Shown here: one piece after another, positions 9,310 through 57,472 of the stretch
Position numbering within the stretch: the stretch's first letter is position 1
Layout: every line of letters starts with the position of its first letter
Assembly: GCA_965233585.1 (NCBI GenBank)
Contig: CBDDTI010000729.1
Coordinates: 64,001 to 128,000, forward strand
Length of the DNA: 64,000 nt
Direction of reading: 5' to 3'
Source of the DNA: a bacterium
GTDB lineage: Bacteria; SAR324; NAC60-12
Program-made: the position numbers and the translations under genes
Notes under the pieces: generated by a model
What the model was told of the DNA's origin: nothing
The model's input: only the letters and a program-made list of their open reading frames with translations
Database searches by the model: none

Positions 9310-9705
9310 TCAAAAGGTTTCGTGAAACACAGTCCACTCTAATTCTGCAAAATGGGTTGGCTGAGATCCAATAGCAGATTGATTCTCTACAATCCTGACA
9401 CCGGGTAAAAAAAGCGGATCAAAGGTGATTCCTTGCACAACAAGAATGAGTCCCACCCCATAGCCAATAATTCCTCCTACACTTGCTCCTATCACGGCTT
9501 TTCTAAAAAGGGGGTCATCATCCAGAATCAAAGTTGAACCCACGACTGCCCCCCAAAGACTTCCAAGCACTGTATTCCAAAAAACTGAACGCATGGCAGG
9601 GGGTCTATTGGTAGAGCCTCTGAATAAATCTTCCACTTCAAAATTTTGAGCGTTCAAAGGAGACACTAACATCACAGACAATAAAATGCAAATAACAATT
9701 CGCAC
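9310..9705 (-). CDS. Secreted/membrane glycine-zipper protein
   Basis: Signal peptide, two GxxxG helices, C-terminal Phe. Confidence 0.7.
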   Translation of the reverse strand: MRIVICILLSVMLVSPLNAQNFEVEDLFRGSTNRPPAMRSVFWNTVLGSLWGAVVGSTLILDDDPLFRKAVIGASVGGIIGYGVGLILVVQGITFDPLFLPGVRIVENQSAIGSQPTHFAELEWTVFHETF

Positions 9706-9708
9706 AGC

Positions 9709-10140
9709 TTAAAAATGATAACGAAATAAAGAAAGATTCCAACTTTGAGGAATGGTGACAAGATGGTTATCCCAATAGCTTTCTGGGGCATACACAAGAG
9801 GTAACGAGTGATGAGAGGACACAGCTGGACTTTTGGAAGGCGTAGAGGCATATTGGGGAATAATTGCAGAATTAGTGAGCAAAAATGCCCCCCCCACCAT
9901 ACCTACAAATGTACCAAAAGAAGCCCCTCCTTGCAGATGGACAGCTAACGGAGTAGGTTGACCAGGATCCATCAACCACACTAAAAAACCTGCACCCAAA
10001 CCCGCAAAAGTTCCCCCAACAGTTGTGACAATCTCTACCTCCATCGCAAGATGACCAACTTCCTGAGCAAAAGGTATATTCTTTGCTATAATAGTCAGAA
10101 GAAGCAACAGGGGGATAATTTTTCTCATCATTTCAATCAA
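9709..10140 (-). CDS. Secreted/membrane glycine-zipper protein
   Basis: Signal peptide, two GxxxG helices, ends FRYHF; true start probably ATG ~10131. Confidence 0.7.
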   Translation of the reverse strand: MIEMMRKIIPLLLLLTIIAKNIPFAQEVGHLAMEVEIVTTVGGTFAGLGAGFLVWLMDPGQPTPLAVHLQGGASFGTFVGMVGGAFLLTNSAIIPQYASTPSKSPAVSSHHSLPLVYAPESYWDNHLVTIPQSWNLSLFRYHF

Positions 10141-10203: not shown

Positions 10204-10866
10204 ATGAAACATTCTCACAACGTCAAAAGCCAGTTTTTACAAAGGTTTTGCCTGTTTTCCTCCTTGATTGTGTTGGCATTTGCAGACGTCATGGCACAAA
10301 CGTCTGACTCATTTTCTTCTGACCCTTTTATGCAAACTAACCCTTCTTCTGATGGAGACCCTTTTTTAGAACAAGACCCCTTCATGCAACAGTTCCCTGA
10401 CTATGATGACAGTCAAAACTTCAACACTTTTGAACTTCCTCAACAACAAAACGACTTGCCTCAGGAAGAATCTGCTCCTGTTCCATCAGACAACAATGCC
10501 CCCCCAGCAGTTCGGGATAACCAATACATTGATGAGTCTGTCATTCCACAAGGATTTGAAGAAAGATTGCAGCAAGAAGCACAACAGCAAAACGTGATTC
10601 TGGGTGATGAAAGGCAAAATATGGTGCCTAATATCGCTTACGGTGTAGGAACAGGCTTTATTATTGGAAGCTGGTTGGCAACCTTGACTGCCAACACTAG
10701 AAGAGATACATTAGCCTCCATTGGTTCTGGGATTGTGTTGGGCGGATTGATTGGGGCATTGATTGGCTCTCGTGCAATTATTTTACCCAATCCTAATATT
10801 CCAAGAGACCCTTCTTTCGGAAAAACTGAAAATTCCGTCATCTTTGTCTGGAACACTCAGTTTTAA
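10204..10866 (+). CDS. Secreted glycine-zipper protein with acidic DPF-repeat N-region
   Basis: Signal peptide, DPF repeats, two GxxxG helices, ends FVWNTQF. Confidence 0.72.
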   Translation: MKHSHNVKSQFLQRFCLFSSLIVLAFADVMAQTSDSFSSDPFMQTNPSSDGDPFLEQDPFMQQFPDYDDSQNFNTFELPQQQNDLPQEESAPVPSDNNAPPAVRDNQYIDESVIPQGFEERLQQEAQQQNVILGDERQNMVPNIAYGVGTGFIIGSWLATLTANTRRDTLASIGSGIVLGGLIGALIGSRAIILPNPNIPRDPSFGKTENSVIFVWNTQF

Positions 10867-10928
10867 GACTTCCCCACCACAAAGTCAAACAAACCGTCTT
10901 TTTTCAATCTTCCTTTAAAATCTACCGC

Positions 10929-12455
10929 CTAATAAACTTGCTTGTAGATGTTGCATTGTTCTTTGAGACTCTTGCCTTCCAAAAACTTTAATTCTCCTAA
11001 CTTATGTTGATGATAGACCTCAACAAAATTAGGAGAAAACCAACTTTTGACATGCTCACTTTGCATCATTTTTTCCAATGCTTCAGAAAGAGTGAAAGGC
11101 AGGTGTGTTAAACCTTTTTCCCGAAGCTGTGATTCTTTCAAAAGAGAAAGGTCATCTTGGTAGATTTTTGGTACAGAAAGGTTGTCTTCAATTCCTTGAC
11201 AACCTGCATGCACGATGGCAGCTAATGCTAAATGTGGAGACGCTGTGGCATCTGCGATTGGCACTTCAAAATGAAACTGATGAGCAGCGCTTTCAAGGGA
11301 GTTTTGAGAGGTAGGGCAAATTCTGACCGATGAACTTTCACTATAACCCAGATTATTGAAAGCACAACCCCAGCCACGAGGAATGTAATTTAAATGAGAA
11401 ATAGCAGAAGGTGCAATGAAAGCCATAATCTGGGGCAGATAGTTGAGTAATCCTGCAACAAATTGCTCCGTTAGCTGCGACATGTTGTAAGTCCTGTTTG
11501 GAGAATAAGCTAAAGGCTCATCTTCTTGACTAAGAAAACTCAAATGAATCTGTACACCATTGCCTGCTTGGTCTAAATCACGGACGGGAGTGAACGTTGC
11601 CTGCGTGTCAAAAGAAGAGGCAACGGCATAGACTAATTCCCTAAAAATTGCTGCCGCATCTGCAATTTGTACCCCCTTAACAGGCTTCATGGACATTTCA
11701 TATTGATTCTCTCCCTGCTCTTTCAAAAACGAATAAGCTTCTACTCCTGTTTGTCGCATCGCATCAACAATCATTTCTCCCATCGCTTGCTGATGCCTAA
11801 AACCTCCGTATGTCAAATGACTGTGCAACAACGCCACTGCTCCTTTAATTTGAAACTGATGCGTCAAAGCACCATACAACGTGGCTTCAGTTAATCGCTC
11901 AAACCGACTCATGGCTGATTGTAAGAGAGAACGAGTACAACACTCCCAAGTCCGTCCGTCCAAGTGATAAATGTTACTTAAAATCAGATGTTGAGAGTTG
12001 CTACGATTTCCGAAGTCAACGAAAGTGCGTGTGTCTAAATCTGGTATTAAAACTAACTCTTCACTGGAGTCATGGGAGTTTGTGGCAAGACTATTGAAAC
12101 AAGTCAGATTGGCATTGGTTGCAGACCAGCTCACGCCACGTTTGAGACCTTCCATTTGCTGACTGAGACGTTTACCTGTTTTTTCTGCAAGCCCTTTTAC
12201 ACGTTCTAACGAATGCTTGACATGATTGAGAAACGTATAAACTCTGCCCAAGTCATCTTTCAAAGGGTCAACATTTTGAAGATGATACTGCTCTTGCAAC
12301 AAATCTTGATAAAGTTTGACCAAATCATCTTGTTCTGTTTGAAGTAACTCCTTTTCATCACTCAATTCTTTGAGCTTATTTTGCGGGAACGCCTTGCCTC
12401 TTAAACGTCCCGAAATGTCAGAAGTCGCCACAAAAATCAGTAGTTCTTTCGTCAT
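10929..12455 (-). CDS. Glutamine synthetase-like protein, apparently catalytically degenerate, with helical insertion
   Basis: DISGRLRGKAFP, WECCTRS, QYE, ATFTP..GNG, D ATASPHLALAA, LPFTLSEAL; key E/H/R residues replaced. Confidence 0.85.
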   Translation of the reverse strand: MTKELLIFVATSDISGRLRGKAFPQNKLKELSDEKELLQTEQDDLVKLYQDLLQEQYHLQNVDPLKDDLGRVYTFLNHVKHSLERVKGLAEKTGKRLSQQMEGLKRGVSWSATNANLTCFNSLATNSHDSSEELVLIPDLDTRTFVDFGNRSNSQHLILSNIYHLDGRTWECCTRSLLQSAMSRFERLTEATLYGALTHQFQIKGAVALLHSHLTYGGFRHQQAMGEMIVDAMRQTGVEAYSFLKEQGENQYEMSMKPVKGVQIADAAAIFRELVYAVASSFDTQATFTPVRDLDQAGNGVQIHLSFLSQEDEPLAYSPNRTYNMSQLTEQFVAGLLNYLPQIMAFIAPSAISHLNYIPRGWGCAFNNLGYSESSSVRICPTSQNSLESAAHQFHFEVPIADATASPHLALAAIVHAGCQGIEDNLSVPKIYQDDLSLLKESQLREKGLTHLPFTLSEALEKMMQSEHVKSWFSPNFVEVYHQHKLGELKFLEGKSLKEQCNIYKQVY

Positions 12456-12631
12456 GATTGATTCAAATTTTTTGATTGTTGAAATTGGTCTTTTTGACTC
12501 GTGACCTATACATTATGAAGAGTCACACAATACTCCTTTAGCAGAGATGTAGCAAACCCATTTTCAAAATCGTTTCCCATTTGGTCTAAAGTTTGTTATG
12601 ATTCTGGATTTAGCTTCTTACTCATAAGCTG

Positions 12632-13105
12632 ATGGAAACTACCTTACTTTTTGACACACTCAAGACCTCCAAACATTTGCAAGCTGCAGGCTTTGAACAA
12701 GAGCAAGCAGAGGCACTGACAGAAGAATTTAAATTTGTTGTAGAAAGCAACTTTGCGAAACTTTCAACCAAAGAACAAGTTTCTGCTTTAGAGACGAATC
12801 TCAATGAGAAACTGGAACAAAAAGCCACCAAAGAACAAGTCACTCACTTACAAGAACAACTGGAGCAAAAAGCCACCAAAGAACAAGTTTCTGCTTTAGA
12901 AATCAGCCTCAATGAAAAGCTTGAGAAGTTTGCTACCAAAGAAGATGTTCAAAATGAACTCAAAGAGGTCAAAGAAGACATCTATTTTTTAAAAGGAGAC
13001 CAGAAGCTCCTTAAATGGATGGTCGGTTTTGGCATTTCTTTAAATCTGTTGACACTTGGAGTCGTGTTAGCTTTTTTGTTTACAGCTACCCTTACTCCTA
13101 CTTAA
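12632..13105 (+). CDS. DUF1640/CCDC90-like coiled-coil protein with C-terminal TM helix
   Basis: FDTL..LQAAGF..EQAEAL, ATKEQV repeats, LKWMVG plus TM. Confidence 0.8.
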   Translation: METTLLFDTLKTSKHLQAAGFEQEQAEALTEEFKFVVESNFAKLSTKEQVSALETNLNEKLEQKATKEQVTHLQEQLEQKATKEQVSALEISLNEKLEKFATKEDVQNELKEVKEDIYFLKGDQKLLKWMVGFGISLNLLTLGVVLAFLFTATLTPT

Positions 13106-13229: not shown

Positions 13230-13316
13230 GAGATTGCGGGTCAAGCCCGCAATGACAAGGAAACGCAGGAATGACAAGTGAGAAAAAACAGAGATTGCGG
13301 GTCAGGGTTCAATGAC
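13230..13316. repeat. REP/RPE-like palindromic repeats
   Basis: GAGATTGCGGGTCAAGCCCGCAATGAC at 13230 and variant at 13291. Confidence 0.85.
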
Positions 13317-14009
13317 TTTAATTTGGTCTGCTTCAGGTTGCAGAAGGTAAACTCCTTTGGCTTTGGCATGAGAGATGAAACGTTCTGGAATGCTTTGACA
13401 GGCAAGCCCCAGATGAATTTGAAAATCCTGATATTGTGGAAAAACAACAGGGAACGTCTCTTTGTGCCTGAACACTTGGTCAAAGTCATCAAGACGAAGT
13501 TTGTGCTTCACTTCTACAATGAAGATGTGAGAGGAATTGTAAAAAACAACATCATACTGCCCAATGACTTTTTTATCGCTTCTTCCCTTCACATTTTTAT
13601 CTACAGAATCATAAGCAACTCCACCAATCATGATGAATCCTTTTTCTTCTATTTCTCTTTGACCAGTACGATAGTAAGCGTCTTCCTGTATGTCGCTTTC
13701 TACCGTGATGTAACTTTCTAGCTTTTTGTTGCTTTCTTTTCTCAAGCGCCTTTCTTCCTTCATTTCTTTCTCCCAAGCGGCATTGGACTCTTGCATCTGC
13801 TTCTCCCAAGCGGCATTGCGTTCTTCTTGCTTTTTAGTCAGTTCTGCTAACTGCTTGCTGTTTTCTTCTTGTTGTTTTGTTAGCTCTGCTAACTGCTTGT
13901 CCGTCTTTTCTTGACGTTTGGCAACAGCATTGACTGTGTCATTGGCTTCTTTAGCGATGACACTGGCTTCTGCCAAGATTTTTTCTATCCTATCTAAACG
14001 TTCTGACAT
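13302..14009 (-). CDS. Coiled-coil plus PD-(D/E)XK nuclease-like protein (DUF3782-like)
   Basis: N-terminal coiled coil with internal repeats; QYDVVFYN..IFIVEVKH. Confidence 0.75.
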   Translation of the reverse strand: MSERLDRIEKILAEASVIAKEANDTVNAVAKRQEKTDKQLAELTKQQEENSKQLAELTKKQEERNAAWEKQMQESNAAWEKEMKEERRLRKESNKKLESYITVESDIQEDAYYRTGQREIEEKGFIMIGGVAYDSVDKNVKGRSDKKVIGQYDVVFYNSSHIFIVEVKHKLRLDDFDQVFRHKETFPVVFPQYQDFQIHLGLACQSIPERFISHAKAKGVYLLQPEADQIKVIEP

Positions 14010-16670: not shown

Positions 16671-18185
16671 CTAAATAAGGCTTTCCATTTGTGGAGAAGA
16701 CAGTAACTCGGTGTATCCTCTGAGGAAAATGTCAATTTGCCTTGCCGCTTCTCGTCCCTCCCAGATTGCCCAAACGACAAGAGAAGCTCCCCGTCTGGCA
16801 TCGCCTGCAACAAAGACACCTTCTTCGCTTGTCATAAAATGATGGTCTTTGAGAGAGAACATGACGTCTCGTTGCTCCAGCATCTGTGCAATGGCTCTGG
16901 GGTCTTGGACTTCATTTGAGCCACGCATGGTCAGTTGCAACCCAAGTTCTGCAACAGGACCTTGCACTTGGGGTCCCAAAAACCCTGTGGCAAGTAAGAT
17001 CATGTCAGTTTCTATGAGGAACTCAGAATCGGGGACTTTTTGCATGGTCATTCGTCCATTTTCTTGCTTCCACTGGACTTTTGAGGCTTTGAGTTGCTTG
17101 ACATTGCCGTTGCCATCACTGATGACTTCTTCAGTCATGGTATTGGCTCGGCAGTCTGTTTCTATTTCTTGATGCGCTGGTGTTGGTCGTGGTGCCATGT
17201 TGACAATCTCAAATTGCCTGACCAACTTTCTGCCCCCTTGCCTTGTGATAGTGCCAAGACAATCTGCCGCCGTGAAACCTCCTCCCAAGATGAGACAACG
17301 TTTGTTGGTTGCTTGAATCCTTGTTTGTTCAGGAATGACATCACCCGCGTTGATTTGATTTTGTTGTGGTAGAAAATCCATTGCATAATGGACTCCATTG
17401 AGTTCTGCACCTTGCACACGTAGCTTGCGTGCATGCCCTGCACCAATGGCAAGCAAGATAGCATCGTGGTCTTTTTTGAGTTCTGCCATGCTGATTTGTT
17501 TGCCTACTTCCACGTTGGTGTGAAAGATGACGCCCTCTTCTTCCATCTGTGCTTGACGCCTTTCTAGCACTATTTTGTCTAGCTTAAAATCTGGAATGCC
17601 ATACCTTGTGAGTCCTCCAATGCGGCTACTTTTTTCAAAAACATGCACCTCATGCCCGACCCGCCTCAGCTGTTGAGCTGCTGCCATGCCTGCAGGTCCT
17701 GACCCTACTACTGCAACATATTTGCCTGTCAAATGCTTGGGTTTTTCTGGCACAATCCAGCCATTATCCCAAGCACGTTCTGTGATGTGTTTTTCAATTT
17801 GCTCAATCGTCACGGAGTGTTTGCGTGTGAGTCGTTCTGCAGGGTCAGTGGTGTAATAAGCATTGAGAACACAAGCGTCTTCACAAGGTGCGGGACAAAT
17901 TCTGCCTGTCATGTCAGGGAAGTTATTAGTTTTGTGAAGTTGGTATGATGCTTCCTTCCAGTTTCCACGATAGACAAGGTCATTCCAATTTGGAATCAAA
18001 TTGCCAAGGGGACAACCTGTATGACAAAAAGGAATGCCACAGTCCATGCACCTTGCTGCTTGTTCGCGAATTTTACCCTCATTATGAAAGGTTTCATATT
18101 CTCGGTAGTCCTGAATCCGTTCCCTCACATCTCTATATGCTGGGGATTCTTTTTCAAAATCTAAAAAACCTGTGTCTTTACCCAT
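16671..18185 (-). CDS. gltD: Glutamate synthase small subunit
   Basis: RCMDCGIPFCHTGCP, GRICPAPCE, GSGPAG, GDARRGASLVVWAI. Confidence 0.96.
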   Translation of the reverse strand: MGKDTGFLDFEKESPAYRDVRERIQDYREYETFHNEGKIREQAARCMDCGIPFCHTGCPLGNLIPNWNDLVYRGNWKEASYQLHKTNNFPDMTGRICPAPCEDACVLNAYYTTDPAERLTRKHSVTIEQIEKHITERAWDNGWIVPEKPKHLTGKYVAVVGSGPAGMAAAQQLRRVGHEVHVFEKSSRIGGLTRYGIPDFKLDKIVLERRQAQMEEEGVIFHTNVEVGKQISMAELKKDHDAILLAIGAGHARKLRVQGAELNGVHYAMDFLPQQNQINAGDVIPEQTRIQATNKRCLILGGGFTAADCLGTITRQGGRKLVRQFEIVNMAPRPTPAHQEIETDCRANTMTEEVISDGNGNVKQLKASKVQWKQENGRMTMQKVPDSEFLIETDMILLATGFLGPQVQGPVAELGLQLTMRGSNEVQDPRAIAQMLEQRDVMFSLKDHHFMTSEEGVFVAGDARRGASLVVWAIWEGREAARQIDIFLRGYTELLSSPQMESLI

Positions 18186-18260: not shown

Positions 18261-21200
18261 TCAAGCGACCTTTTGTTTTTTGAGTATGGCACGATATTCA
18301 ACAGGCATGACTCTGACAAACAATGATGAAAGCCTTTGCCAATGTTTGAGAAGATGCTGACCACGCTTGCTTTGTGTTTCTTGAACGTAGTCTTCAATCA
18401 ACTCTTTAAGCCAGATGAGTTCTGCCTGTTCATCAATCGTTTCTAACTCTACCATGCTATGATTGCAGAGTGTTGCAAGCTGTTTTTCTTCATCAAACAC
18501 ATAAGCAATACCTCCGCTCATGCCTGCGGCAAAGTTCTTACCTGTTTTGCCAAGCACGACTACACGACCCCCTGTCATGTATTCGCAGCCATGGTCCCCA
18601 ACGCCTTCTACCACGGCGTAAGCACCGCTGTTTCTCACTGCAAAACGTTCTCCTGCAATGCCACAGAAAAAGGCAGTGCCACTGGTTGCCCCGTAAAGCG
18701 TTGTGTTGCCAATGATGATGTTCTCATCTGCTTGAAAGGTTGCTTTGGGTGAAGGGTACACAATCACACGCCCCCCGCTTAAACCTTTACCTGTGTAATC
18801 ATTGGCATCGCCTTCTAGCTCAAGGGTGATACCTTTGGCAAGGAATGCCCCAAAACTTTGCCCCGCAGAACCTGTGAAGTGAAAACGTATGAGGTGATGA
18901 GGCAGTCCTTTGTCTTCATACTTCAGAGCCACTTGACCACTCAACATCGTCCCAACAGAGCGATTGGTGTTGCAAATTTTCAAGGATTCTCTGACAGGTT
19001 TTTGATGTTCTAAGGCAGGTTTTGCCAGTTCAATCAGCTGGTGGTCTAGCTGTTTGTCCAATCCGTGATTTTGGGACATGTTGCAATATGGGAAGTCGTT
19101 TTCTCCAACCTTGATTGGTGTCAGTAATTGAGAAAGGTCTATTTTCTTGGCTTTCCAGTGAGTGATGTTGTCCCGCTGTTTCAGTAAATCGGTGCGTCCA
19201 ACAAGTTGGTCAAAACGCTTGATTCCTAATTTTGCCATAATCTCACGGACTTCTTCTGCAATAAAAAAGAAGTAATTGACCACATATTCAGGTTTTCCTG
19301 TGAATTTTTTACGCAATTCAGCATCTTGCGTTGCCACACCCACAGGGCAAGTATTGAGATGACACTTACGCATCATAATACAACCCAATGTAATCAATGG
19401 AGCAGTGGCAAAGCCGATTTCTTCAGCACCTAGCAAAGCCGCAATGACAACCTCCCTTCCTGTCTTGACCTGACCATCTACTTGCAAACGGACACGCCCC
19501 CGCAGTTCGTTGAGCAACAAGGTTTGATGAGCCTCTGCGATGCCAAGCTCCCAAGGTAGTCCTGCATGTTTGATAGAAGTTAGGGGAGACGCCCCTGTCC
19601 CCCCGTCATGTCCTGCAATGACAATCATATCTGCATGCGCTTTTGCCACGCCTGATGCAATCGTCCCGACTCCTGCCTCTGACACCAGTTTGACAGCAAT
19701 CCTTGCCTTCGGATTGGCATTTTTGAGGTCAAAAATCAGTTGAGCCAAATCTTCAATAGAATAGATGTCATGGTGCGGGGGAGGAGAGATGAGAGTGACG
19801 CCCGGTGTAGAATGCCTGATTTTGCCAATGTATTCGCTCACTTTGTGTCCCGGTAATTGACCGCCTTCTCCGGGTTTTGCACCTTGTGCAATTTTAATCT
19901 GAAGCTCAACACAGTTGACAAGATAGTGAATGGTCACACCAAAACGTCCTGATGCAACTTGTTTGATGTTACTATTTGCCCAGTCTCCATTTGCAAAAGG
20001 TTTGAAGCGGATTTGGTCTTCGCCTCCTTCACCGCTGTTACTTTTTGCCCCAATGCGATTCATAGCGATTGCAAGAGCCTCGTGTGTTTCTTGGCTGATT
20101 GACCCCAAAGACATTGCACCTGTTGCAAACCGCCTGACAATCTCCTTAGCTGGTTCTACCTCCTCTATTTCAATCGCATTTTGAGTATCTACAAAATCCA
20201 ACGCTCCTCGCAATGTTGCAAACCGCGTGTTGTTGGCATTGACCATGCGTGAAAATTCACGGTAGGACTCCAAGCTGTTTTCACGACTTGCTTTTTGAAG
20301 AGAGATGACGCTGGCAGGTGTGTACTGATGAATCTCTCCGTGCCTCCTCCAAAAATAATCCCCTCCTACCAGCAAGGTTTGGTCGTTTTGAGTTTCTACA
20401 AATGCGTTTTGCACCCGCATTCTTGCTTCACGTTCTACGTCTTCCAAATCAAGTCCTTGAATCCTTGTGGGCGTGCCTGTGAAGTAACGGTCTACAAAAT
20501 TTTGATTCAGTCCGACTGCCTCAAAAATCTGGGCGCCACGATAGCTTTGAATGGTAGAAATCCCCATTTTTGCAAACACTTTGAACATTCCCTTTTTGAT
20601 GCTTTTCAAGTAGTTTGCTTGCAAAGTCTCTTGGCTTAATTCACGGGAGACAAAGCGTTCTTCTTGCATTTGTTCAAAGGTTTCAAAGGCAAGATAAGGG
20701 TTGATTGCACCTGCCCCGTATCCGATAAGTAAACAAAAGTGTGCAATTTCTCTGGCTTCTCCTGTTTCTATAATCAATCCTGTGTGTCCCCGTCTTCCTG
20801 CACGGATTAAGGAGTGATGCACTGCTGAAGTGGCAAGCAGAACAGGAATGGGGATTTGTGTTGAGCAGACCCCGCGGTCGCTTAAAATGATGAGGTTTGA
20901 CCCAGACTTTGTTGCCTCAATGGCATCTTGACAAATCTGGTCTAACACTGCCCGCATACTCTGGTCTTGGGGACACAAGATTGAGAAAGTGGCAGGGTTA
21001 AAGTCTTTGAGACTTTGGATTTTTTGGAACTGTTCGTTTGTGATGATAGGGTGTTCTAGCCTAATCATCTGAGCATGTTCAGGACCAATCTTTAAAATGT
21101 TGTGTTCCCTGCCAATGCGGCTGACCAAAGACATGACTAGCTCCTCTCGGACAGAATCTACTGCAGGATTGCTCACTTGTGCAAAAAGCTGTTTGAAGTA

Positions 21201-22721
21201 CTGGCTTAAAATATGGGGTTTGTCAGACAGCACAGCCAATGGTGCATCATTGCCCATAGACCCTGTTGCTTCAGCACCTTCTACAATCATCGGCTTCAAA
21301 ATCATGTGTAAATCTTCTACTGAATATCCAAAAGCACGCTGACGTTCAATGATTGTTGAGTCTTCCTTTGGTAGTGTCTTTAGATTGGGTTGGGGCAGGT
21401 CTTCTAAACGTATGGTGTGTTTTTGAATCCATTGGGCGTAAGGGAATTGTTTGCAAATCTCTGTTTTGAGTTCAGGACCTGAGATGATACGTTTTTGTTC
21501 AGTATCCACAAAAAACATTCTGCCGGGTTCAAGTCTCCCTTTCAAGCTGATGTCTTCTTCTGCAATGTCAATCGCTCCTGCCTCTGACGCCATGACAATG
21601 ACATCATTTTTGGTGACTACATAACGTGCAGGTCGTAGTCCGTTGCGGTCTAGCGTTGCCCCAATTCTAATGCCGTCAGTGATGGCGATTGCTGCGGGCC
21701 CGTCCCAGGGTTCAATAAAGTTTTCAAAAAACTCATAAAATGCCTTTCGTTCTGGGTTGTCATAATGTGAGTGGTCCCATGCTTCTGGCACCATCATCAT
21801 AATCGCTTGTGCGATGGAATAGCCTGATAAAATCAAAAATTCTAAAACATTATCAAAGCATGATGAATCACTTCCTGCATCGGAGATGATGGGGAAAATA
21901 TCTTCAATCTTGTCGTAAAGGTTTGACTGAATCAATGCCTCTCTGGCTCTTGTCCAGTTGACATTCCCCCGCAGTGTGTTGATTTCTCCATTATGAGCGA
22001 GATAGCGAAAAGGCTGTGCAATCTCCCAACGAGGCAAAGTATTTGTGGGGAAACGTGTATGAGCCATCGCCAAAGCACTTTGATATGAAGGGTCTGCAAG
22101 GTCAAGATAGAATTGGTGCATTTGGTCTGGGGTCAGCATGCCTTTGTAAGTGATTTTGCGGCACGAGATTCCAGTGATGGCACAATTTTCTACACCAAGC
22201 GTTTTTTCAATCTGCCTTCGCAAGACATAAAGTTGACGCTCAAAGTCTTCTTCTTGAGTGCTTGCCTCCTTTCCAATAAAAAAGTGCACAATCTCTGGTC
22301 TGGCAGAATCTGCTTGCTTACCAACGTAAGTTGGGTCAACTGGCACGTCCCGCCAGCCTAAAAACTTGAGGTTGTATTGTTTTGTTAGAGAGCAAACGGT
22401 GTCTTGGCAAACCTCTTTATTTTGATAGACAAACGCCGTGCCGATGCCATAGTGTCTAGCATCAGGTAGGTTGATTGAAAGGAGTTGGCACTGTGCTTTA
22501 AAAAAATGGTGGTCAATCTGCAGTAAAATTCCTGCACCATCGCCTGTTTCTGGGTCTGCTCCGTACGCCCCACGATGTTCCAGACGGCACAACATTTTTA
22601 AACCTTGCTCAACAATTTTGCGGGAAGGACGCCCCTGAATATCTACAATGAAACCAACACCACAGTTGTCATGCTCAAACTGTGGGTCATATAAACCTTG
22701 CTTAGAATGCCCGAACTTCAT
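18261..22721 (-). CDS. gltB: Glutamate synthase large subunit
   Basis: [42 protein letters not shown]. Confidence 0.97.
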
Positions 22722-22898: not shown

Positions 22899-24791
22899 TC
22901 AAAAGAACATGCCGTAGCCTAATTTGAAGAGATGGTCGCGTTGTGTGTCTTGGTAAGTGAGGCGGAACTCATGGTCTAATTGGTAGGCATAGCTGAGTTG
23001 CAAAGTGCCTTCCAGAGGCAAGGTAGGAATGTCTGCAAATTGATATTTTCGTTGAGCCAAAAGCATCTGCCAAGTCCACTGCTTGTGACTGCCAAGCCAT
23101 TGGAGTTCTGCTTTTGTTGCTAATGTTGTGTGTTCTTTTTGAAAATCTTCAGAATGTTGCAAGACGGCTGCCAACAGAGGTGAAAGCAAAGAGTTTTTTG
23201 CTAGGGCAATGGTATATCCTAAACCCCCTTGAAAATAAGCATATCCGCATTTTTCGCACTGAACATTGGGTCTAAAATTCCGCTCCCAGCCTGTTTGAAC
23301 CTTCCAAGAAAATCCTGACACAAAGTCATCACGGGGAATGAATGACATCAATTCAAGAAAAAGGAAGCGGTCTAGCAAAATTTGTGTGTCGTCAATTCTA
23401 ATGTCTGTCTCTAAGGCTTTGATGGAGGCGCCAAAATCATAGCCTTGAGGGAAGTCTGCAAGCCCATGATAAGAAGCCCGATATTGCAGATTTAAAAAGT
23501 TTTTTTGACTGAAAAGGTCTCTTCCTAAACTTGTTGTGAATTTAGATGTTTCATGTCCTTGTTCATAAGAAAAATCAGGTTGTTGGACGGAATTTTGTGA
23601 TTGATAAGGGATTTGAGAGCGTTTTCTGAGCAGTTGACGCCAGCGGTTTTTTTGTTGCTTCTTGTCCTCTCTCAATAAAATCTTGTCAGACAAGGTTTCT
23701 AAGATAGTGGCTTGCACACGGGGGTCTTGCTGATTCCATTCTGAGCTATCTACCAATGTTTCATCATCATAGACTCTTCTTGCAAATTCTTTTTCAGCAG
23801 AAGAGAGGGATTGAAACTTTGCTTGTGCTTGATGCAGTCGTGAGGGTCGGTAGTTTTTTTGTTTGAGAATGCCGGGAATTTTTAAAACTTCTCTGACTGT
23901 ATCCACAGGAGCCGCCCACAAGTTAAAACGTTCTCTCAACTGGTATTCTGGCTTTGCCGCTTCAAGCAACGAAAGCAGTTGATAAGAGCAGTTTTCTAAG
24001 AAAAAGAAATAACGGAATCTGACAAATCGCAACTCCCAAAAATGTTTCATCAGCCTCTCAATTTCTTCTGGTGTCAAATTAAGCTCATATTCCCAAATGT
24101 CCCGTCCTTCTATATCGTTATATTCTTGGATTTTGATGTAGTAAGGAGTGTTTTGCATGACTCCTGTGTAGCCTCCAAAAATTCCCCAAAGTGCGTATTT
24201 GATGGGATTTTCTGCCTCTGGATTGACAACTGCACCATAAGTGACGTTGTAATTCAAGGGGGCAAAGTCTTCCCTTCCTTTGGTGTTTAAAACAAGTGAA
24301 GTATGTCCAAAGATGGTGGCAGGTGCGGTGAGGCGTGAGCCGGGAAAAATGAGATTGATAGATTCAGGATTGAGTCGTTTAATCCAACCTTCGTAACGTG
24401 GGCAAGGGATTTCTGGCAGTAAATTAGGATTGAATTGTAATTGTGTTTTGAGCCAGCTGTAACGTGCAACGAACTGGCATTGTTTATGGAGTGTCTGGTC
24501 ATTGTCTGGAGGGGGATTAAAAAAAGCCTGTAACGTGGCTTCCAATTCGCTTTGGGGGTCAAACATGCCCTCTTTAGAATTAAAAAAATTGGGGTCTTCA
24601 ATTTCTGACCTTGCCCCAAAAACGCCGCTGCGATAATGCAATAACAACAACCAGTAACGACTTTCCGAAATTTGCTTCTGATTGGCTTGTCTAATGAGAA
24701 GTTGAAGGTATTGGTCTTGGGAGGGTGTCAGTGCCTTGACAAAAGAAGGCACTAGGAAGAGAAGAATGAAAAAGAGGGGTTTCAAAGACAA
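22899..24791 (-). CDS. DUF4105 (Lnb N-terminal-like) domain outer-membrane protein
   Basis: W..LLHY, CQFVARY.W, FGHT, YFFFLENCSY, C-terminal beta strands ending in F. Confidence 0.8.
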   Translation of the reverse strand: MSLKPLFFILLFLVPSFVKALTPSQDQYLQLLIRQANQKQISESRYWLLLLHYRSGVFGARSEIEDPNFFNSKEGMFDPQSELEATLQAFFNPPPDNDQTLHKQCQFVARYSWLKTQLQFNPNLLPEIPCPRYEGWIKRLNPESINLIFPGSRLTAPATIFGHTSLVLNTKGREDFAPLNYNVTYGAVVNPEAENPIKYALWGIFGGYTGVMQNTPYYIKIQEYNDIEGRDIWEYELNLTPEEIERLMKHFWELRFVRFRYFFFLENCSYQLLSLLEAAKPEYQLRERFNLWAAPVDTVREVLKIPGILKQKNYRPSRLHQAQAKFQSLSSAEKEFARRVYDDETLVDSSEWNQQDPRVQATILETLSDKILLREDKKQQKNRWRQLLRKRSQIPYQSQNSVQQPDFSYEQGHETSKFTTSLGRDLFSQKNFLNLQYRASYHGLADFPQGYDFGASIKALETDIRIDDTQILLDRFLFLELMSFIPRDDFVSGFSWKVQTGWERNFRPNVQCEKCGYAYFQGGLGYTIALAKNSLLSPLLAAVLQHSEDFQKEHTTLATKAELQWLGSHKQWTWQMLLAQRKYQFADIPTLPLEGTLQLSYAYQLDHEFRLTYQDTQRDHLFKLGYGMFF

Positions 24792-25261
24792 ACGCCTTGA
24801 AGTTTTGGATCCTTCTCAATGAGTTGTTGGGTGTTTTGCAAGACTTGTTGAGGCGTTGCTGTATCTGTAAAGATGTCGTCATATTGCTGTTGAGAAACTT
24901 GATTAAAAGTGTCTGCTTGGCAGTTTAACAACTTGCTGTAAGAGCTTAAAAACAACCCTTGTCCTTGACTCATCTCTTCTGAAATTTTGTCAAAATTAGC
25001 TTTGACAAAAACCTCTGCTTCATATTCTGCCTTCACCACATCATCGGGATTACATCCAGAAGTGCCACTTGTAATTGCAAAAGTCTGCGACCCTGACGAG
25101 TAATTTGTTACCATGACTGATAAATTGGCTCCGAATCCTTTTTGTCCTTTAAAAAGGAGATAACCCGGACCACAACCAGAAGTTGCACCTGCAAAGCTCA
25201 AAGTTGTTGAGAACCAGAAAACAGCAGTGACGATGCCAGCGATTTTAGTCAATTTCATCAT
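24782..25261 (-). CDS. DUF3015 family secreted protein
   Basis: Signal peptide, GCGPG..TN..FAITSGTSGC. Confidence 0.82.
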   Translation of the reverse strand: MMKLTKIAGIVTAVFWFSTTLSFAGATSGCGPGYLLFKGQKGFGANLSVMVTNYSSGSQTFAITSGTSGCNPDDVVKAEYEAEVFVKANFDKISEEMSQGQGLFLSSYSKLLNCQADTFNQVSQQQYDDIFTDTATPQQVLQNTQQLIEKDPKLQGVCL

Positions 25262-25322: not shown

Positions 25323-25814
25323 TTACAAGCAAGCAACTTGAAGTTTTGGATTTTCTTGAATGAGTTGTTGTGTATTCTGTAAAACTTTTTGAGGCGTTGC
25401 CATGTCTGTAAAGATGTCGTCATATTGCTGTTGAGAAACTTGATTAAAAGTGTCTGCTTGGCAATTTAACAATTTGCTGTAAGAGCTTAGAAACAAACCT
25501 TGCCCTTGACTCATCTCTTCTGAAATTTTGTCAAAATTGGCTTTGACAAAGATTTCTGTTTCATATTCTGTTTGCACCACATCATCAGGATTACAGCCAG
25601 AAGTGCCACTTATGAGTGCAAACACGTCTGATGAGTATGTGCCATTTGTTGTGACGGCTGATATGTTTGGGACAAGACCTTTCTGTCCTTCAAAAATTTG
25701 AGAACCCGGACCGCAACCAGAAGTCTTGCCTGCAAAACTCAAAGTTGTTGAGAACCAAAAAACGGCAGTCACGATGCCAGCGATTTTAGTCAATTTGAAC
25801 ATAATGAACTCCAA
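25323..25814 (-). CDS. DUF3015 family secreted protein, tandem paralog
   Basis: Same motifs; near-identical N- and C-terminal parts to 24782..25261. Confidence 0.82.
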   Translation of the reverse strand: MEFIMFKLTKIAGIVTAVFWFSTTLSFAGKTSGCGPGSQIFEGQKGLVPNISAVTTNGTYSSDVFALISGTSGCNPDDVVQTEYETEIFVKANFDKISEEMSQGQGLFLSSYSKLLNCQADTFNQVSQQQYDDIFTDMATPQKVLQNTQQLIQENPKLQVACL

Positions 25815-28150: not shown

Positions 28151-31100
28151 TCATAGTAAATTCAGTTGATTGATACAGACCGAAAATGCTGTCAAGTTTC
28201 CAATGGCATTACTTTGGATTTGTTCTATTGCAGAAAAGTAAGCATGAAGGGGAGTTCCAAAGTCTTCAAGAGCTTTGGCTCTCACGACTTCAGCATCAAC
28301 ATTGTCTAATCCTTTAGGCTTCCATTCTTTGATAAAATATTGGGTGAGGTCGCTTTTACGTAGATGAAGATTTTGCAACAAAATTTCTTGCTGTGCAATC
28401 TCCCAATCACTGCGGAGCTTCATGCTGGTCAGTTGCGTTTCAATCCATTGCAGTTTGAAGGTATGGTCAATGAGATACGAGGCTTGAAGGGCTAAGTCAA
28501 AAGAAATCTCTTGTTCAAAATGCAGATAGAGAGCATCAGGCAGTGTTGTAATGGATTCAAAAATCGCAATGGTTTGCGCTGTCTGCTCATCAAAGCCGAG
28601 GTCTTGCCAACCTTTGATAATGCTGTCCTCAATGTTTTTCAAAAGTTCAGTCTTCGCTTGCTTCCAAAACTTCAAATAGTTAGAAACCTCTTGAAACTGG
28701 AATTGTTGTTGATGTTGAAGAAACGAAATGGTGGCTTGCCTTAAAAAATTTTCAGAGTGAATCAATGCACGATATTTGTCAAGCACAAAAGTTTCAGATT
28801 GCAGGATAGTATAGCGGTATTGAGTCATGTCAAAAGAGGCATCAAGGAACAAATAAATTGAGGCAATTTGTTCAGCAGAGGCTTGCGTGACGCTTTGCAC
28901 GTAGTAAAAGAAAGTCATACCTGCTTGATTGACAATTTGGTTGACAACGATTGCACAAGTGATCTCCCTTCTCAAAGGGTGAAAGGGCAGAGAGTCTGCA
29001 AATTTGTTAAGCAAGGTTTGGGGAAAGTAATTTTGATAAAACGTCTTGAGAAAGTCATGGTCAAGGATTTTGGAATGTTCTAATTCGTTGCAAATGTTCA
29101 TTTTGACGTAGGCTTGTAAGATAGCTAGCACAGGTCTCGGAATAGATTCTTGACGTTCTTCCATACGTTCCAGTTCTCCGCGTGTTGGGATTTTTTCACT
29201 TTCTGCATCTAAATTTTGTTTTGCTACCAAATAACGGGTCAGATTTTTAAAGTTCCGAAATTCTGTTTTGGTGCGATGTTCGTCCATAGAAAGCAAGCGA
29301 TGCTGTGCGCGATTGTTGGCTAAGACTAAATTTGAGACCTCATCTGTTGCTTCACGCAAAGTGGCATTGCGGTCTTCAAGAGATTCTAACTTGCCTTGCT
29401 GTAATAATTGCTGCAACAAAACCTTGATGTTGACTTCATAATCAGACATGTTCACACCTGCAGAATTGTCAATGGCATCAGTATTTCCACGCCCTCCTTG
29501 TTTGGCAAATTGAATACGTGCAGGTTGAGTCATACCAAGATTTGCACCTTCTCCAATCACTTTGACTTGGCATTGACTGACATCAATCCGAGTCAAATTA
29601 TTAGCATGGTCTCCCACGTCTGCATGAGTTTGGTCATCAGATTTGATGTAAGTGCCAACACCTCCAAACCAGAGTAAATCTGCTGGCATTTTTAGAATCG
29701 CACAAATCAACTCCTCACCTGTCATCGTTTTCACTTGGACGCCAAGCATTTTTTGGACTTCAGGAGACAACGTCACTTCCTTCGCATTGCGTTCAAAGAT
29801 ACCTCCCCCTTGACTAATCAGTTGAGTTTGGTAATCGTTCCAACCAGAACGAGGCTTGTGAAAGAGTCGCTGACGTTCCTGCCATGATTCTTGAGCATTG
29901 GGAGTGGGGTCAAGAAAAATATGTTTATGATTAAATGCGGCAACCAACAAAATCTGCTGACTTAGAAGCATTCCGTTGCCAAAAACATCGCCAGACATGT
30001 CGCCTACACCAATGACAGTAGAAGGTTCGTTTTGAATATCTCTGCCCATTTCTGCAAAATGTAATTTGACACATTCCCACGCTCCGCGTGCGGTAATGCC
30101 TTCTTTTTTATGGTCATATCCAACAGAGCCACCAGAGGCAAAGGCATCTCCTAGCCAAAACTCATAATGTTCTGCTTCTGCATTGCCAAAATCAGAAAAA
30201 GTAGCCGTGCCTTTGTCAGCGGCAACGACAAGATAGGGGTCATAGTCATCGTAGCAAATCACATGGTTTGGGTGTTTGGGCAGTCGGTTAAAATCCAAAT
30301 TATCTGTAATATCCAGAAGAGACCGAATGAAACGTTGATACTGTCGTTGTCCTTCTTGCGGAAGTTCGGCTGCACTCACCTTTTTTTTCACAATAAATCC
30401 ACCTTTTGAACCATTGGGAATGATGACGACGTTTTTAGTTTGTTGAGTTTGGACAAGATTCAAGACTTCAGAACGGAAGTCATTATGTCGGTCAGACCAT
30501 CGCAAGCCTCCTCTTGCTACTGCACCAAAACGCAAATGAACGCCTTCTACTGTGGAATCATAGACATAGATTTCACGATAAGGCACAGGAGAAGGAATGT
30601 TTTCAAGAGAACGGAGGCACAATTTGACCGAAAGAAAGGTCTCGTTAGCATCAGTTTTGGGAATATAAAAATTGGTTCGCAACGTGGCTGAAATGAGTTC
30701 AAACAGTCGTCTAAAAATGGCGTCTGTGACTACTTCCTTCACATTGCGCAGGCTGTCTATAAATTCTTTTTCTAATTCAGGCAAAAGCGAGCTTTGACGA
30801 TAATCCTTCGTGCCAAAAGAAGTTTCGCAAGAAAACTTGGTCTCAAAATATTGAAAGATTTTTAAAGTGTGTTGAGGATATGCCAACAAGGCAGTGTTGA
30901 TTTGGTCAATGCTATAAGGTTGTTTCAGTTGGAAGTATAAATTGCGATACATCACCACCACACGGATTGCCTCCCATGACATTTCTGCCAACAAACAAAG
31001 AGCATTGAGTGGGTCATTTTCAACACGACCGAGCAAAGCGGCTTTGAGTAAATCAGTAAACAAAACCTTGTAGCGATTCACATCTAACGTTTGCCTTTGC

Positions 31101-32911
31101 ATGTCTTGAATCCGAAACGTCATCACGTAGCCAATGGTTTGGTCTGATGTGCCAATCCTTGCATTGAGTTGGTCTAAAACATAAATTCCCATATTTTGAA
31201 TGATAGGCATGACCTGTGTCAGATTGATTTTGCCTTTGCAATAGATATAAAGCAAAGTCGTCTGTTCAGAAAGGGCAGAACCTGTGAAAACAAAAGGTTT
31301 CATGTTGAATAAGAATTCTTCACCACTTGTGAGTTGTTCAAGGTAAAAAATATCTTCTGCGGCATCTTCGGGGCTGGTTCTGCTTCTGTAATGACTTGGG
31401 AGCCAAGGCAGATACTTTGTGGCTCGTTCGTAAAGTCCTGTTGAAAACTTTTGATGAATGAAATCAATCGTCAAAGATTCCCACGACTTCAAGGCATCGT
31501 TCAAATCTTTGAGGATTTTATCTAGGTCTGGTCTCCATTTACCGTTGAGGTCAAAATAGATATGAAGCCATTGAGTTTGAACACTGCGAATGGTGAGGAG
31601 TTCATAATCCTGATGAGGAATTTGTGATTTAAGATAGTTGAGAGTTTTTTCAACATTGACTCGGTTGAAGATGTCAGTAGGCAAAACAATCAAAAGACAA
31701 ACCGATTGCCTTTCAGGAAAAGGATAAAAGAAGGCACGGATTTCATTGGGATTGTAGATTAAAAGTAGGTCTTCAATCATACGTGCAAGCGTTTGTTGTG
31801 GAAGCCAAAACAGCTCAAACTTGGGAATCACACTGCTTAAACGAATGGTCTGGTTGTAGCTGTAGCTTGAAGGAATCATACGAAATTGCTCAAAAATCTT
31901 TTGCAGTTTCAGATGAATGATTGGAGTCTCTAAATTGCTAGCATGTAAAGAACTTCTGCGAATCAAGCCAACAAAGACAAAGTGTTGATGAGAACGACTT
32001 GAAGATTGAAAACGCAAGCAGATTAATTTTTCTGCACTTTGAACAGGGCTGATGGCAGAGAGGTTTTCAAAAGCAAAGGGTTCTTGATCCCTGCCCTTCC
32101 ATAAATCTGCCACAAGTTTTTGGTCAAGGTGGGTCTTGTCTTTTTGCAAATGATCACTGGCAAGCAATCCAAGTCCTGATTCTTTGTCTAGCGATGGCTT
32201 TTGATTAGGTTCAAATTGGACTTCAACATATCCCAAAAAGTGAAAGTGTTGACGTTCAAGCCAGCCAATTAAGTCAATCCATTCTTGCTTAGGATGTTCT
32301 GATTGAACATCTCCAGACTCAATTTCTGCTTTGACCATAGCAGTTTTGGATTGAATTTGTTTTAAATCTCTTGCCACACACTCCACAGCGTTTAAGTGCT
32401 GTTGAATGGTGAGTTTGAGGTTGTCCAAATCAATGCCATCTATTCGGTCTAATTCCAAATAAATGCAACAATAGCTTTCTTGTCCTTCTGATTGAGGTAG
32501 AACATTGACCAAGACTTGATTTTTAATCACTACTCCTAAAATAGGATTGAGCCGAAAGACAATGCTGATTCCCAGATTTCGCAACATCATTTCCAGAGTC
32601 ATTAGCAAATGCAACATATCTGGGTAGATGAGTTCCAGTGCAATCTTTTCTGAAAGAACAGGCTTAAAAAAGCGAAAGTCTCCTTTTTGTTTGACAGATT
32701 CTTCAAAAAAACTATGACGTTCACGCATGAACTTCATCAGTTCCACATCACTATAATTTTCTAAAGCTCTCTCTGGGACGCTTTTCATGTAAGCATGAGA
32801 AAAGGCACAAAAAAGTGTGTCTTCGCAAGACTCCAAAAATTTTGAAAACTTTTCTTCTGCACTTTCTACACCCTGAATGTTGGGATTGTTCTGAATCATA
32901 AGGCACTCCAA
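28151..32911 (-). CDS. Large NAD-specific glutamate dehydrogenase
   Basis: GVHLRFGAVARGGLRWSDR, VVAADKGTATFSD, GDMSGDVFGNG, GEGANLG. Confidence 0.95.
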   Translation of the reverse strand: MECLMIQNNPNIQGVESAEEKFSKFLESCEDTLFCAFSHAYMKSVPERALENYSDVELMKFMRERHSFFEESVKQKGDFRFFKPVLSEKIALELIYPDMLHLLMTLEMMLRNLGISIVFRLNPILGVVIKNQVLVNVLPQSEGQESYCCIYLELDRIDGIDLDNLKLTIQQHLNAVECVARDLKQIQSKTAMVKAEIESGDVQSEHPKQEWIDLIGWLERQHFHFLGYVEVQFEPNQKPSLDKESGLGLLASDHLQKDKTHLDQKLVADLWKGRDQEPFAFENLSAISPVQSAEKLICLRFQSSSRSHQHFVFVGLIRRSSLHASNLETPIIHLKLQKIFEQFRMIPSSYSYNQTIRLSSVIPKFELFWLPQQTLARMIEDLLLIYNPNEIRAFFYPFPERQSVCLLIVLPTDIFNRVNVEKTLNYLKSQIPHQDYELLTIRSVQTQWLHIYFDLNGKWRPDLDKILKDLNDALKSWESLTIDFIHQKFSTGLYERATKYLPWLPSHYRSRTSPEDAAEDIFYLEQLTSGEEFLFNMKPFVFTGSALSEQTTLLYIYCKGKINLTQVMPIIQNMGIYVLDQLNARIGTSDQTIGYVMTFRIQDMQRQTLDVNRYKVLFTDLLKAALLGRVENDPLNALCLLAEMSWEAIRVVVMYRNLYFQLKQPYSIDQINTALLAYPQHTLKIFQYFETKFSCETSFGTKDYRQSSLLPELEKEFIDSLRNVKEVVTDAIFRRLFELISATLRTNFYIPKTDANETFLSVKLCLRSLENIPSPVPYREIYVYDSTVEGVHLRFGAVARGGLRWSDRHNDFRSEVLNLVQTQQTKNVVIIPNGSKGGFIVKKKVSAAELPQEGQRQYQRFIRSLLDITDNLDFNRLPKHPNHVICYDDYDPYLVVAADKGTATFSDFGNAEAEHYEFWLGDAFASGGSVGYDHKKEGITARGAWECVKLHFAEMGRDIQNEPSTVIGVGDMSGDVFGNGMLLSQQILLVAAFNHKHIFLDPTPNAQESWQERQRLFHKPRSGWNDYQTQLISQGGGIFERNAKEVTLSPEVQKMLGVQVKTMTGEELICAILKMPADLLWFGGVGTYIKSDDQTHADVGDHANNLTRIDVSQCQVKVIGEGANLGMTQPARIQFAKQGGRGNTDAIDNSAGVNMSDYEVNIKVLLQQLLQQGKLESLEDRNATLREATDEVSNLVLANNRAQHRLLSMDEHRTKTEFRNFKNLTRYLVAKQNLDAESEKIPTRGELERMEERQESIPRPVLAILQAYVKMNICNELEHSKILDHDFLKTFYQNYFPQTLLNKFADSLPFHPLRREITCAIVVNQIVNQAGMTFFYYVQSVTQASAEQIASIYLFLDASFDMTQYRYTILQSETFVLDKYRALIHSENFLRQATISFLQHQQQFQFQEVSNYLKFWKQAKTELLKNIEDSIIKGWQDLGFDEQTAQTIAIFESITTLPDALYLHFEQEISFDLALQASYLIDHTFKLQWIETQLTSMKLRSDWEIAQQEILLQNLHLRKSDLTQYFIKEWKPKGLDNVDAEVVRAKALEDFGTPLHAYFSAIEQIQSNAIGNLTAFSVCINQLNLL

Positions 32912-55167: not shown

Positions 55168-55226
55168 AGCCTGATATTTGGCATCATCAAAGGGGCTTAA
55201 TACTTTCCCACATTTTCATTCCTCCT
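55154..55226 (-). promoter_or_regulatory. Putative programmed -1 ribosomal frameshift signal
   Basis: AGGAGG-11 nt-G GGA AAG-5 nt-long stem-loop linking the RM and S frames. Confidence 0.65.
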
Positions 55227-57384: not shown

Positions 57385-57458
57385 TGCACCCGGGAGGACT
57401 TGAACCTCCAACCTTTGGATTCGAAGTCCACTGCTCTATCCGATTAAGCTACGGGTGC
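57385..57458 (-). tRNA. tRNA-Arg(TCG)
   Basis: GCACCCG..CGGGTGC-A, anticodon loop CTTCGAA; CCA not encoded. Confidence 0.94.
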
Positions 57459-57472
57459 TTGGAGGAGAAATC

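Follow-up and report, generated by a model that had tools for sequence, protein, structure and literature searches.

What does a bacterium keep when a member of the glutamine synthetase (GS) family appears to lose many of its catalytic residues while its reading frame stays open? The question is raised by a gene at positions 10929-12455 (minus strand) of the window analysed here, that is, the whole 64,000-nt stretch comprising positions 64,001 to 128,000 of contig CBDDTI010000729.1 in assembly GCA_965233585.1, from an uncultured bacterium of the SAR324 lineage. In the reading that we prefer, and to which we assign a probability of about 0.6, its product, hereafter P0001, would be a lineage-specific paralog of the PA5508-like gamma-glutamyl-amine ligases (GS-I-like, of the 'GoaS' type) that has lost ligase chemistry and has been kept as a folded protein.

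The gene is a single intact open reading frame (ORF) of 508 codons plus stop, encoding a protein of 508 aa. Against Pfam, P0001 scores 178.1 bits with PF00120 (Gln-synt_C; cut-off 24, E 3.4e-52) over residues 220-494, which places it in the catalytic-domain family. The nearest solved structure by sequence is 4hpp (PA5508; E 1.3e-54, query residues 97-508), and the same entry is the top Foldseek fold match (E 3.4e-35, target-normalised TM 0.90) of an AlphaFold2 model derived from an alignment of 120 sequences, with a mean predicted local distance difference test score (pLDDT) of 88.4 and a predicted TM-score (pTM) of 0.87. P0001 thus has the glutamine synthetase fold, and a first-pass annotation made from the sequence alone was right to describe an intact ORF and a relative of GS-like gamma-glutamyl ligases. 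The main parts of the protein are the following.

10929..12455, minus strand: whole P0001 ORF, putative GS-fold pseudo-ligase, 508 aa plus stop (PF00120, 4hpp match, AlphaFold2, Foldseek)
12363..12455, minus strand: residues 1-31, first two beta-grasp strands of the N-domain, upstream of an insert described below (strands 6-12 and 18-24 in the model)
11931..12140, minus strand: remaining N-domain, residues 106-175, including loop 107-135, which is aligned to the GS loop FDGSS (alignments)

The N-terminal beta-grasp domain scores 24.2 bits with PF16952, below the cut-off of 35.7, because the insert splits it; its family invariants are kept in the alignment and its strands in the model, and residues 1-31 retain seven of seven invariants (D13, G16, R19, G20, K21, F23 and P24). 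P0001 also lies under every NCBIfam equivalog cut-off, with 171.9 against 650 for GGputSyn (NF045547), 130 against 429 for GlnA (TIGR00653) and 108.3 against 469.6 for type III GS (TIGR03105), as does an intact paralog from the same genome, P0002, for GGputSyn (214.8 against 650).

The active site is where P0001 departs from these ligases. Its motifs were located in the alignments, with position equivalences fixed by aligning the canonical GS-I of the same genome (PEAEF, HHEVSPAQHE, NGSGMHSH, SYKR..GFEAP, ARNRSATIR, EYR and FDGSS).

11853..11867, minus strand: LTHQF, residues 197-201, both metal-ligand Glu replaced
11697..11723, minus strand: KEQGENQYE, residues 245-253, metal-ligand E246 and E253 retained
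11544..11561, minus strand: NGVQIH, residues 299-304, Q302 new and H304 kept
11388..11399, minus strand: SHLN, residues 353-356, glutamate-binding Arg to Asn and Tyr to His
11358..11384, minus strand: IPRGWGCAF, residues 358-366, remodelled flap loop (family consensus TPHRWSAAF; segment 359-367 has pLDDT below 50)
11322..11345, minus strand: YSE-SSSVR, residues 371-378, two Arg lost (one by deletion), R378 kept
11259..11270, minus strand: FEVP, residues 396-399, metal-ligand E397 kept, next Arg to Pro

The FEHEF of the family has become LTHQF, with T198 and Q200 in place of both metal-ligand Glu of the E-x-E strand; NGVHIH has become NGVQIH, the first His giving way to Q302 while the second (H304) is kept; SY(L/F)R reads SHLN (Tyr to H354, Arg to N356); RDRE(A)(S/A)VR reads SE-SSSVR, with S372, E373, one deleted residue and S374; EFR reads EVP (Arg to P399); and the flap loop TPHRWS reads IPRGWG. 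All these changes are unique to P0001 in alignments of 14 and 120 family members, that is, against 13 and 119 relatives, and the five motif replacements reported in the first-pass annotation all hold in them. Alignment with GS families, which it had proposed as a check, puts the loss at six of 11 canonical metal, ATP and glutamate positions, comprising three of six metal ligands and three of four catalytic arginines. Read as an 11-position string, P0001 has TQEEQHN-REP, whereas P0002 and the Bradyrhizobium protein P0015 both have EEEEHHRRRER (0 of 11 changed).

In the Salmonella typhimurium GS numbering, the losses are E129 to T198, E131 to Q200, H269 to Q302, R321 to N356, R339 to the deletion and R359 to P399, and the five retained residues are E212 (E246), E220 (E253), H271 (H304), R344 (R378) and E357 (E397). 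The six GS metal ligands are E129, E131, E212, E220, H269 and E357, of which P0001 keeps three, and of the arginines that bind glutamate and the ATP phosphates (R321, R339, R344 and R359) it keeps one. By these equivalences, the active site of P0001 is degraded and not erased. In PMC6478659, metal-binding and glutamate-orienting residues are described as usually conserved in these ligases.

When the coding sequence of the paralog was randomly mutated in a neutral-drift simulation (4000 replicates per level), the share of open frames fell from 25% at 2% divergence to 3.7% at 5% and 0.3% at 10%, with 0 of 4000 replicates open at 20% or more; P0001, whose frame is still open, shows a 46% residue difference from its nearest relative. 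For the 433 codon pairs that P0001 forms with P0002, the Nei-Gojobori method yields a pN of 0.29 and a pS of 0.69, corresponding to a dN of 0.37 and a saturated dS of 1.87; the resulting ratio of nonsynonymous to synonymous rates (dN/dS), which the first-pass annotation had named as a further check, is about 0.2 and not near 1. For the P0001 branch itself, rough arithmetic with dN split by protein branch lengths and dS equally, and with no fitted model, gives a dN/dS of roughly 0.3. Residue retention in P0001 climbs with family conservation, from 56% to 77%, and the losses are unevenly placed. Family conservation reaches at least 97% across the 119 relatives at 43 positions lying within four residues of a catalytic one, and P0001 has lost 19 of these; the corresponding losses are 7 of 14 in loop 107-135 and 7 of 71 in the remainder of the protein (Fisher p 0.0012 for losses near versus not near catalytic positions, in windows chosen after the alignment had been viewed and from GS residue numbers). 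This supports the notion that the rest of the protein has been kept under what looks like purifying selection while the ligase site was dismantled, and that over its history P0001 has apparently not been a decaying gene. A pseudoenzyme combines a fold under selection with the loss of catalytic residues, and P0001 seems to show both. Population variation was sought for a pN/pS estimate, with 0 differences found across the gene in the contigs of four public sequencing runs.

P0001 carries in addition a segment that its relatives lack. It lies between RGKAFP (residues 19-24) and RGVSW (residues 106-110), as the first-pass annotation had placed it, although its length is 72-74 aa by alignment and not the approximately 78 aa given there, and the helical segment then proposed is indeed helical in the AlphaFold2 model, where it forms two helices folded as a hairpin rather than one segment.

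12141..12362, minus strand: lineage-specific insert, residues 32-105 (72-74 aa), absent from relatives
12276..12380, minus strand: hairpin helix 1, residues 26-60, acidic (AlphaFold2, block mean pLDDT 73-88)
12138..12251, minus strand: hairpin helix 2, residues 69-106, basic and amphipathic (AlphaFold2)
12237..12259, minus strand: repeat copy 1, encodes KDDLGRVY (83% identical to 12309-12331)
12309..12331, minus strand: repeat copy 2, encodes QDDLVKLY (direct-repeat search)

Relatives pass directly from ...RGKAFPxxQ(F/L)xxR to (K/R)RGVGW, the insert being absent in 119 of 119 and likewise from 100 aligned full-length representatives. The model joins the two antiparallel helices through the linker NVDPLKDD, and no other sequence in its alignment spans the insert, yet the block reaches a pLDDT of 73-88. 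Helix 1 is acidic (9 D/E versus 4 K/R) with hydrophobic residues at 7 of 10 heptad a/d positions. Basic residues prevail in helix 2 (9 K/R versus 3 D/E), where 9 of 11 such positions are hydrophobic and the hydrophobic moment lies 4.6 standard scores (z) above shuffles. This charge and heptad pattern is easier to reconcile with two antiparallel helices packing within one molecule, as in the monomer model, than with a long coiled-coil spike of the kind that the first-pass annotation had considered possible. The insert sits a few residues ahead of the loop aligned to the canonical FDGSS, a loop which in GS extends into the active site of the adjoining subunit. The seven invariants kept upstream of the insert also imply that translation through it has been under selection.

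As to its origin, a 23-nt direct repeat inside the insert, in frame, 83% identical and with a spacing of 72 nt (24 codons), hints at growth through internal duplication; by a rough estimate, the chance of such a repeat in the stretch is about 0.01. It is the only repeat found there, a search for mobile-element signatures having revealed neither a flanking target duplication nor a tandem repeat. Neither tblastn nor blastn found a source elsewhere in the genome, and family searches with the insert returned only coiled-coil noise in Pfam and scores of at most 0.85 in a protein atlas. Two other explanations were considered and rejected. A one-off assembly error is contradicted by the contigs of the four public runs, which cover 10700-12673 with 0 differences (the runs represent two samples of one study, probably the source of the assembly itself), and an intein or intron by the continuous frame, the helical nature of the insert and the lack of splicing motifs.

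A word-indexed search of 5.8 billion clusters returned 512 relatives of P0001. The closest, P0002 (434 aa, 54% identical), is encoded in the same genome on a different contig, C747, and is followed by P0003 (434 aa, 53%), from a single metagenome contig; further relatives, of 431-476 aa and 41-49% identity, come mostly from Rhizobiales, Rhodobacterales and Arenicellales. No insert-bearing ortholog emerged from an exhaustive search of 1.84 billion representatives (3112 matches), where 0 of the 149 others among the matches listed covers residues 32-76, nor was an ortholog found in 40 genomes of the same family or order (nothing above 31%) or by scanning genome and metagenome contigs for P0001-specific peptide patterns. 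P0001 is thus a singleton from one uncultured bacterium. In the tree, P0001, P0002 and P0003 form a clade with 100/100 support nested among proteins of 431-438 aa, and the branch of P0001 measures 0.86 changes per site, about 3.3 times the P0002 path (0.10 + 0.16, or 0.26). The topology places P0001 outside P0002 and P0003 (99/90), although the approximately unbiased (AU) test fails to reject a pairing of P0001 with P0002 (p 0.079). GC content at third codon positions (GC3) is 0.366 in P0001 and 0.364 in P0002, against 0.33-0.42 in neighbouring genes, and this match with the host rules out recent foreign DNA for both genes. The genome also encodes a canonical GS-I and a second GS-like gene besides P0002; P0001 is therefore not needed as a glutamine synthetase.

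For the relatives in this clade, ORFs were listed for 10 of 80 fetched loci. In six of these 10, the start of the GS-like gene coincides with the end of an ORF of some 280-300 aa, and a family scan of these six identified all of them as RpiR/SIS regulators; the other four loci have no such ORF. An FGase-type amidohydrolase, an isochorismatase-like hydrolase, a Peripla_BP_6 protein and a fused Liv-type ATP-binding cassette (ABC) protein recur near clade genes in Alphaproteobacteria and Arenicellales, and the P0002 gene itself (C747:214993-216207; locus L009:9991-11295, minus strand) follows an RpiR/SIS regulator gene and faces the genes for a fused Liv-type ABC protein and Peripla_BP_6. Judging from gene context, the 431-438-aa clade looks like a catabolic gamma-glutamylation module for some amine, and it has no curated family. 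These 'glutamine synthetase family proteins' resemble P0001 at 41-54% identity over residues 1-31 and 106-508, but P0002 and P0015 keep 11 of 11 catalytic positions, and P0002 its RpiR context, whereas P0001 has neither; it is without RpiR/SIS, transporter or hydrolase genes around it, and is flanked by genes for small membrane proteins and by coiled-coil genes present in multiple copies.

Comparison with better-known systems helps to frame what such a protein might do. PA5508 of Pseudomonas aeruginosa (4HPP) is described in PMC6478659 and PMC11335346 as a hexameric GS homologue and an active ligase that glutamylates bulky amines. P0001 shares with it a two-domain GS architecture devoid of a long C-terminal thong, and PA5508 is its best match in both sequence and fold, but PA5508 keeps EHEF, NGVHLH, SYLR, REAALR and EFR, whereas P0001 has lost them and adds a hairpin. 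The vertebrate lens offers a precedent for a dead homologue, since lengsin is a GS-I-like pseudo-glutamine-synthetase that forms a folded oligomer without GS activity and has a non-enzymatic role. In contrast to P0001, lengsin is eukaryotic, its loss of activity is independent, with no common origin implied, and its added segment is an N-terminal extension rather than an internal hairpin. GS rings are also known to work by contacting proteins at the entrance of the active site or close to it, in Bacillus, Listeria and Paenibacillus (GS with GlnR or TnrA peptides) and in Methanosarcina (GS with GlnK1), and the GS-regulator entries 7tf9, 7tfa, 7tf6 and 8tge are among the Foldseek matches of P0001; these are active moonlighting enzymes, however, whereas P0001 is without the full catalytic set.

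In P0001 the ligase machinery has been given up on each side of the interface site. Its relatives form single hexameric rings (PMC6478659 and PMC13740247), and if P0001 still assembles in this manner, it would be expected to present its former sites at the subunit interfaces of such a ring. It would then act by binding and not by catalysis, with a ligand or partner protein engaged either in the pocket, which is remodelled and has lost charge, or by the projecting hairpin, and the hairpin might act as an added contact arm or cover the former amine entrance like a lid. P0001 would accordingly be a regulatory or scaffolding pseudoenzyme and no metabolic ligase; the repurposed scaffold or sensor, possibly a ring, of the first-pass annotation is a conjecture on the same lines. 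A bolder version, which we hold tentatively and would not expect to prevail, makes P0001 the first recognised bacterial counterpart of lengsin: a ring-forming dead GS homologue whose charge-zippered hairpin, placed beside the amine entrance, would act as an interaction arm to regulate P0002 in mixed rings or an enzyme of nitrogen metabolism, dead GS-like proteins being in that case a recurrent and overlooked class.

Regulation of P0002 can also be considered on its own, as a special case of the pseudoenzyme reading in which P0001 would be a regulatory subunit in mixed rings, with dead or modulated interface sites and the hairpin gating the amine entrance. An intact paralog of the same clade in the same genome, the retention of about 90% of invariants away from the P0001 active site and the location of the insert directly before the loop aligned to FDGSS all speak for such an arrangement, as does the placement of the active site in relatives, described in PMC11335346 as a pocket between adjacent subunits with two Mn2+ ions bound by Glu and His. 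It nevertheless strikes us as unlikely, given that the two genes lie on different contigs, that P0001 does not share the RpiR and transporter context of P0002 and that the interfaces may no longer fit, the two proteins being 54% identical and half of the N-domain loop invariants being changed. Slightly less probable still is that P0001 remains an enzyme with altered chemistry or substrate, single-metal or metal-independent, working through E246, E253, E397, H304 and R378 in an uncharged pocket. The five of 11 positions kept, the polar nature of the replacements (T, Q, Q, N and S) and the evident purifying selection would all suit it, but three of four catalytic arginines, which hold glutamate and the ATP phosphates, are gone together with two of three ligands of one metal site. 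The flap loop, too, is remodelled, and the model gives it low confidence, and the replacement of about half of the invariants around the site points to relaxation rather than to a new conserved site; moreover, 57 zero-change representatives and both near relatives retain the full catalytic set.

To the idea that the gene is a relic, functional long after duplication, now dispensable and open in frame only through the recency of its inactivation, we give the lowest standing among these alternatives. A singleton without orthologs in 40 relatives, 5.8 billion clusters, 1.84 billion representatives or contig scans, on a branch 3.3 times longer and beside multi-copy and possibly mobile genes, is what a relic might look like, and after neutral drift of up to about 2-5% an open frame would still be seen in 25% to 4% of cases. 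Against this, the frame stayed intact while most of the divergence built up, including all six catalytic replacements and an insert of 74 stop-free codons, and 90% of the invariants outside the active site are kept, along with all seven in the N-terminal 31 residues. Several observations do weigh against the pseudoenzyme reading itself. Retention of only 77% of invariant sites overall bespeaks a strongly relaxed protein; the dN/dS of 0.2 is rough, with dS saturated, and averages both paralogs; the windows of the Fisher test were defined after the fact; and, with no orthologs to compare, selection cannot be gauged for the insert or for the youngest portion of the branch. With five catalytic residues kept, T, Q and Q could still touch metal, and residual or altered chemistry is possible. 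Gene context offers no functional clue, and a singleton from one uncultured genome can carry only limited weight. On balance, we favour a pseudoenzyme kept as a folded protein.

P0001 may not be the only protein of this kind. Among 100 full-length representatives in its vicinity, 57 have no change at the 11 positions, 21 have one, 12 two, two three, four four and four five to ten. Inspection of the motifs indicated real degeneration in P0170, P0201, P0206 and P0268 (5-10 of 11 changed) and a weaker form in P0222 (4 of 11); the P0170 cluster comprises six members on many contigs, with one record named Candidatus Schmidhempelia bombi. All five share with P0001 a PA5508-like sequence neighbourhood, but none has the insert and their substitutions are different, which makes the losses look independent. 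Each cluster may represent a bacterial pseudo-GS family in its own right, and, from their motifs, dead GS-like proteins seem to recur in bacteria. Full-text literature searches, judged by their listings, turned up no bacterial dead GS homologue. The exhaustive search also returned giant proteins with several GS-like stretches, six in P0122 (4424 aa), three in P0157 (2757 aa) and three in P0140 (1356 aa), as well as P0267 (1098 aa).

The window around P0001 is ordinary chromosome, with ligA, cysS, a 3-deoxy-D-arabino-heptulosonate 7-phosphate (DAHP) synthase, a hisC-like gene, mgtE, gltBD, a large NAD-dependent glutamate dehydrogenase (NAD-GDH) and tRNA genes. The first-pass annotation had drawn attention to the location near gltBD and GDH, and these genes are indeed nearby (gltD at 16671-18185, gltB at 18261-22721, NAD-GDH at 28151-32911). 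The association goes no further than proximity, since P0001 is separated from them by four other genes, one of them on the opposite strand, and therefore shares no operon with them; the gene stands alone between convergent and divergent neighbours, with its own intergenic regions, and is absent at the syntenic site in six relatives. Its upstream region is the following.

12456..12631, no strand assigned: upstream intergenic region, common to the divergent gene 12632-13105 (sequence inspection)

A simple scan found no sigma-70-like promoter for the minus strand and no terminator after the gene, visual inspection found no sigma-54 site in 12456..12631, and no Rfam element (riboswitch or other RNA) was found upstream. 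The gene is without a Shine-Dalgarno-like motif, as is typical here, where 11 of 43 window ORFs have one. Defence-system models run against P0001 and seven neighbours gave no match for P0001, and only weak coiled-coil matches for 13302-14009. A look for RNA records that contain this stretch returned none.

On one side of P0001 lies a trio of small Gly-rich proteins, predicted to be membrane-bound or secreted and without a family match, encoded at 9310-9705 (minus), 9709-10140 (minus) and 10204-10866 (plus). The last is matched in 22 of 26 genomes, the adjacency holds in six of six fetched loci, and one relative has the same CheY-like receiver gene beside it; in those six loci neither a P0001 relative nor gltBD lies beside the trio. 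On the other side are two coiled-coil genes of multi-copy families, for which tblastn against the genome gives 29 and 35 hits at 40-88% identity, including tandem arrays such as that at C746:88543-93393. The gene at 12632-13105 (plus) encodes a CCDC90/DUF1640-like protein of 157 aa with a C-terminal membrane segment, and that at 13302-14009 (minus) a protein of 235 aa whose C-terminal part, by eye, looks PD-(D/E)XK-like. In the sequencing runs, the summed depth of contigs climbs from about 3 to 125-175 (18.5 in X4) at 12576-12700, where many contigs end. Elsewhere in the window, tandem DUF3015 paralogs with nearly identical N- and C-terminal halves (24782-25261 and 25323-25814, both minus) adjoin an Lnb_N/DUF7840/DUF7843 protein (22899-24791); tandem TerB-domain paralogs of about 305-311 aa (42787-43704 and 43723-44658, both minus) adjoin mgtE; and a restriction-modification pair (53755-57263, minus), formed by a fused HSDR_N/N6_Mtase/Eco57I-type protein of 688 aa and a specificity subunit of 470 aa, adjoins two tRNA genes (57385-57548).

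Few enzyme folds have been studied as thoroughly as that of GS, whose bacterial paralogs are as a rule taken to be ligases acting on other amine substrates; annotation pipelines would accordingly label P0001 a 'glutamine synthetase family protein'. If the reading put forward here is true, P0001 would represent a bacterial case of enzyme-to-binder repurposing in the GS fold. More generally, the degenerate GS-like clusters suggest that function prediction in this family should check the catalytic set.

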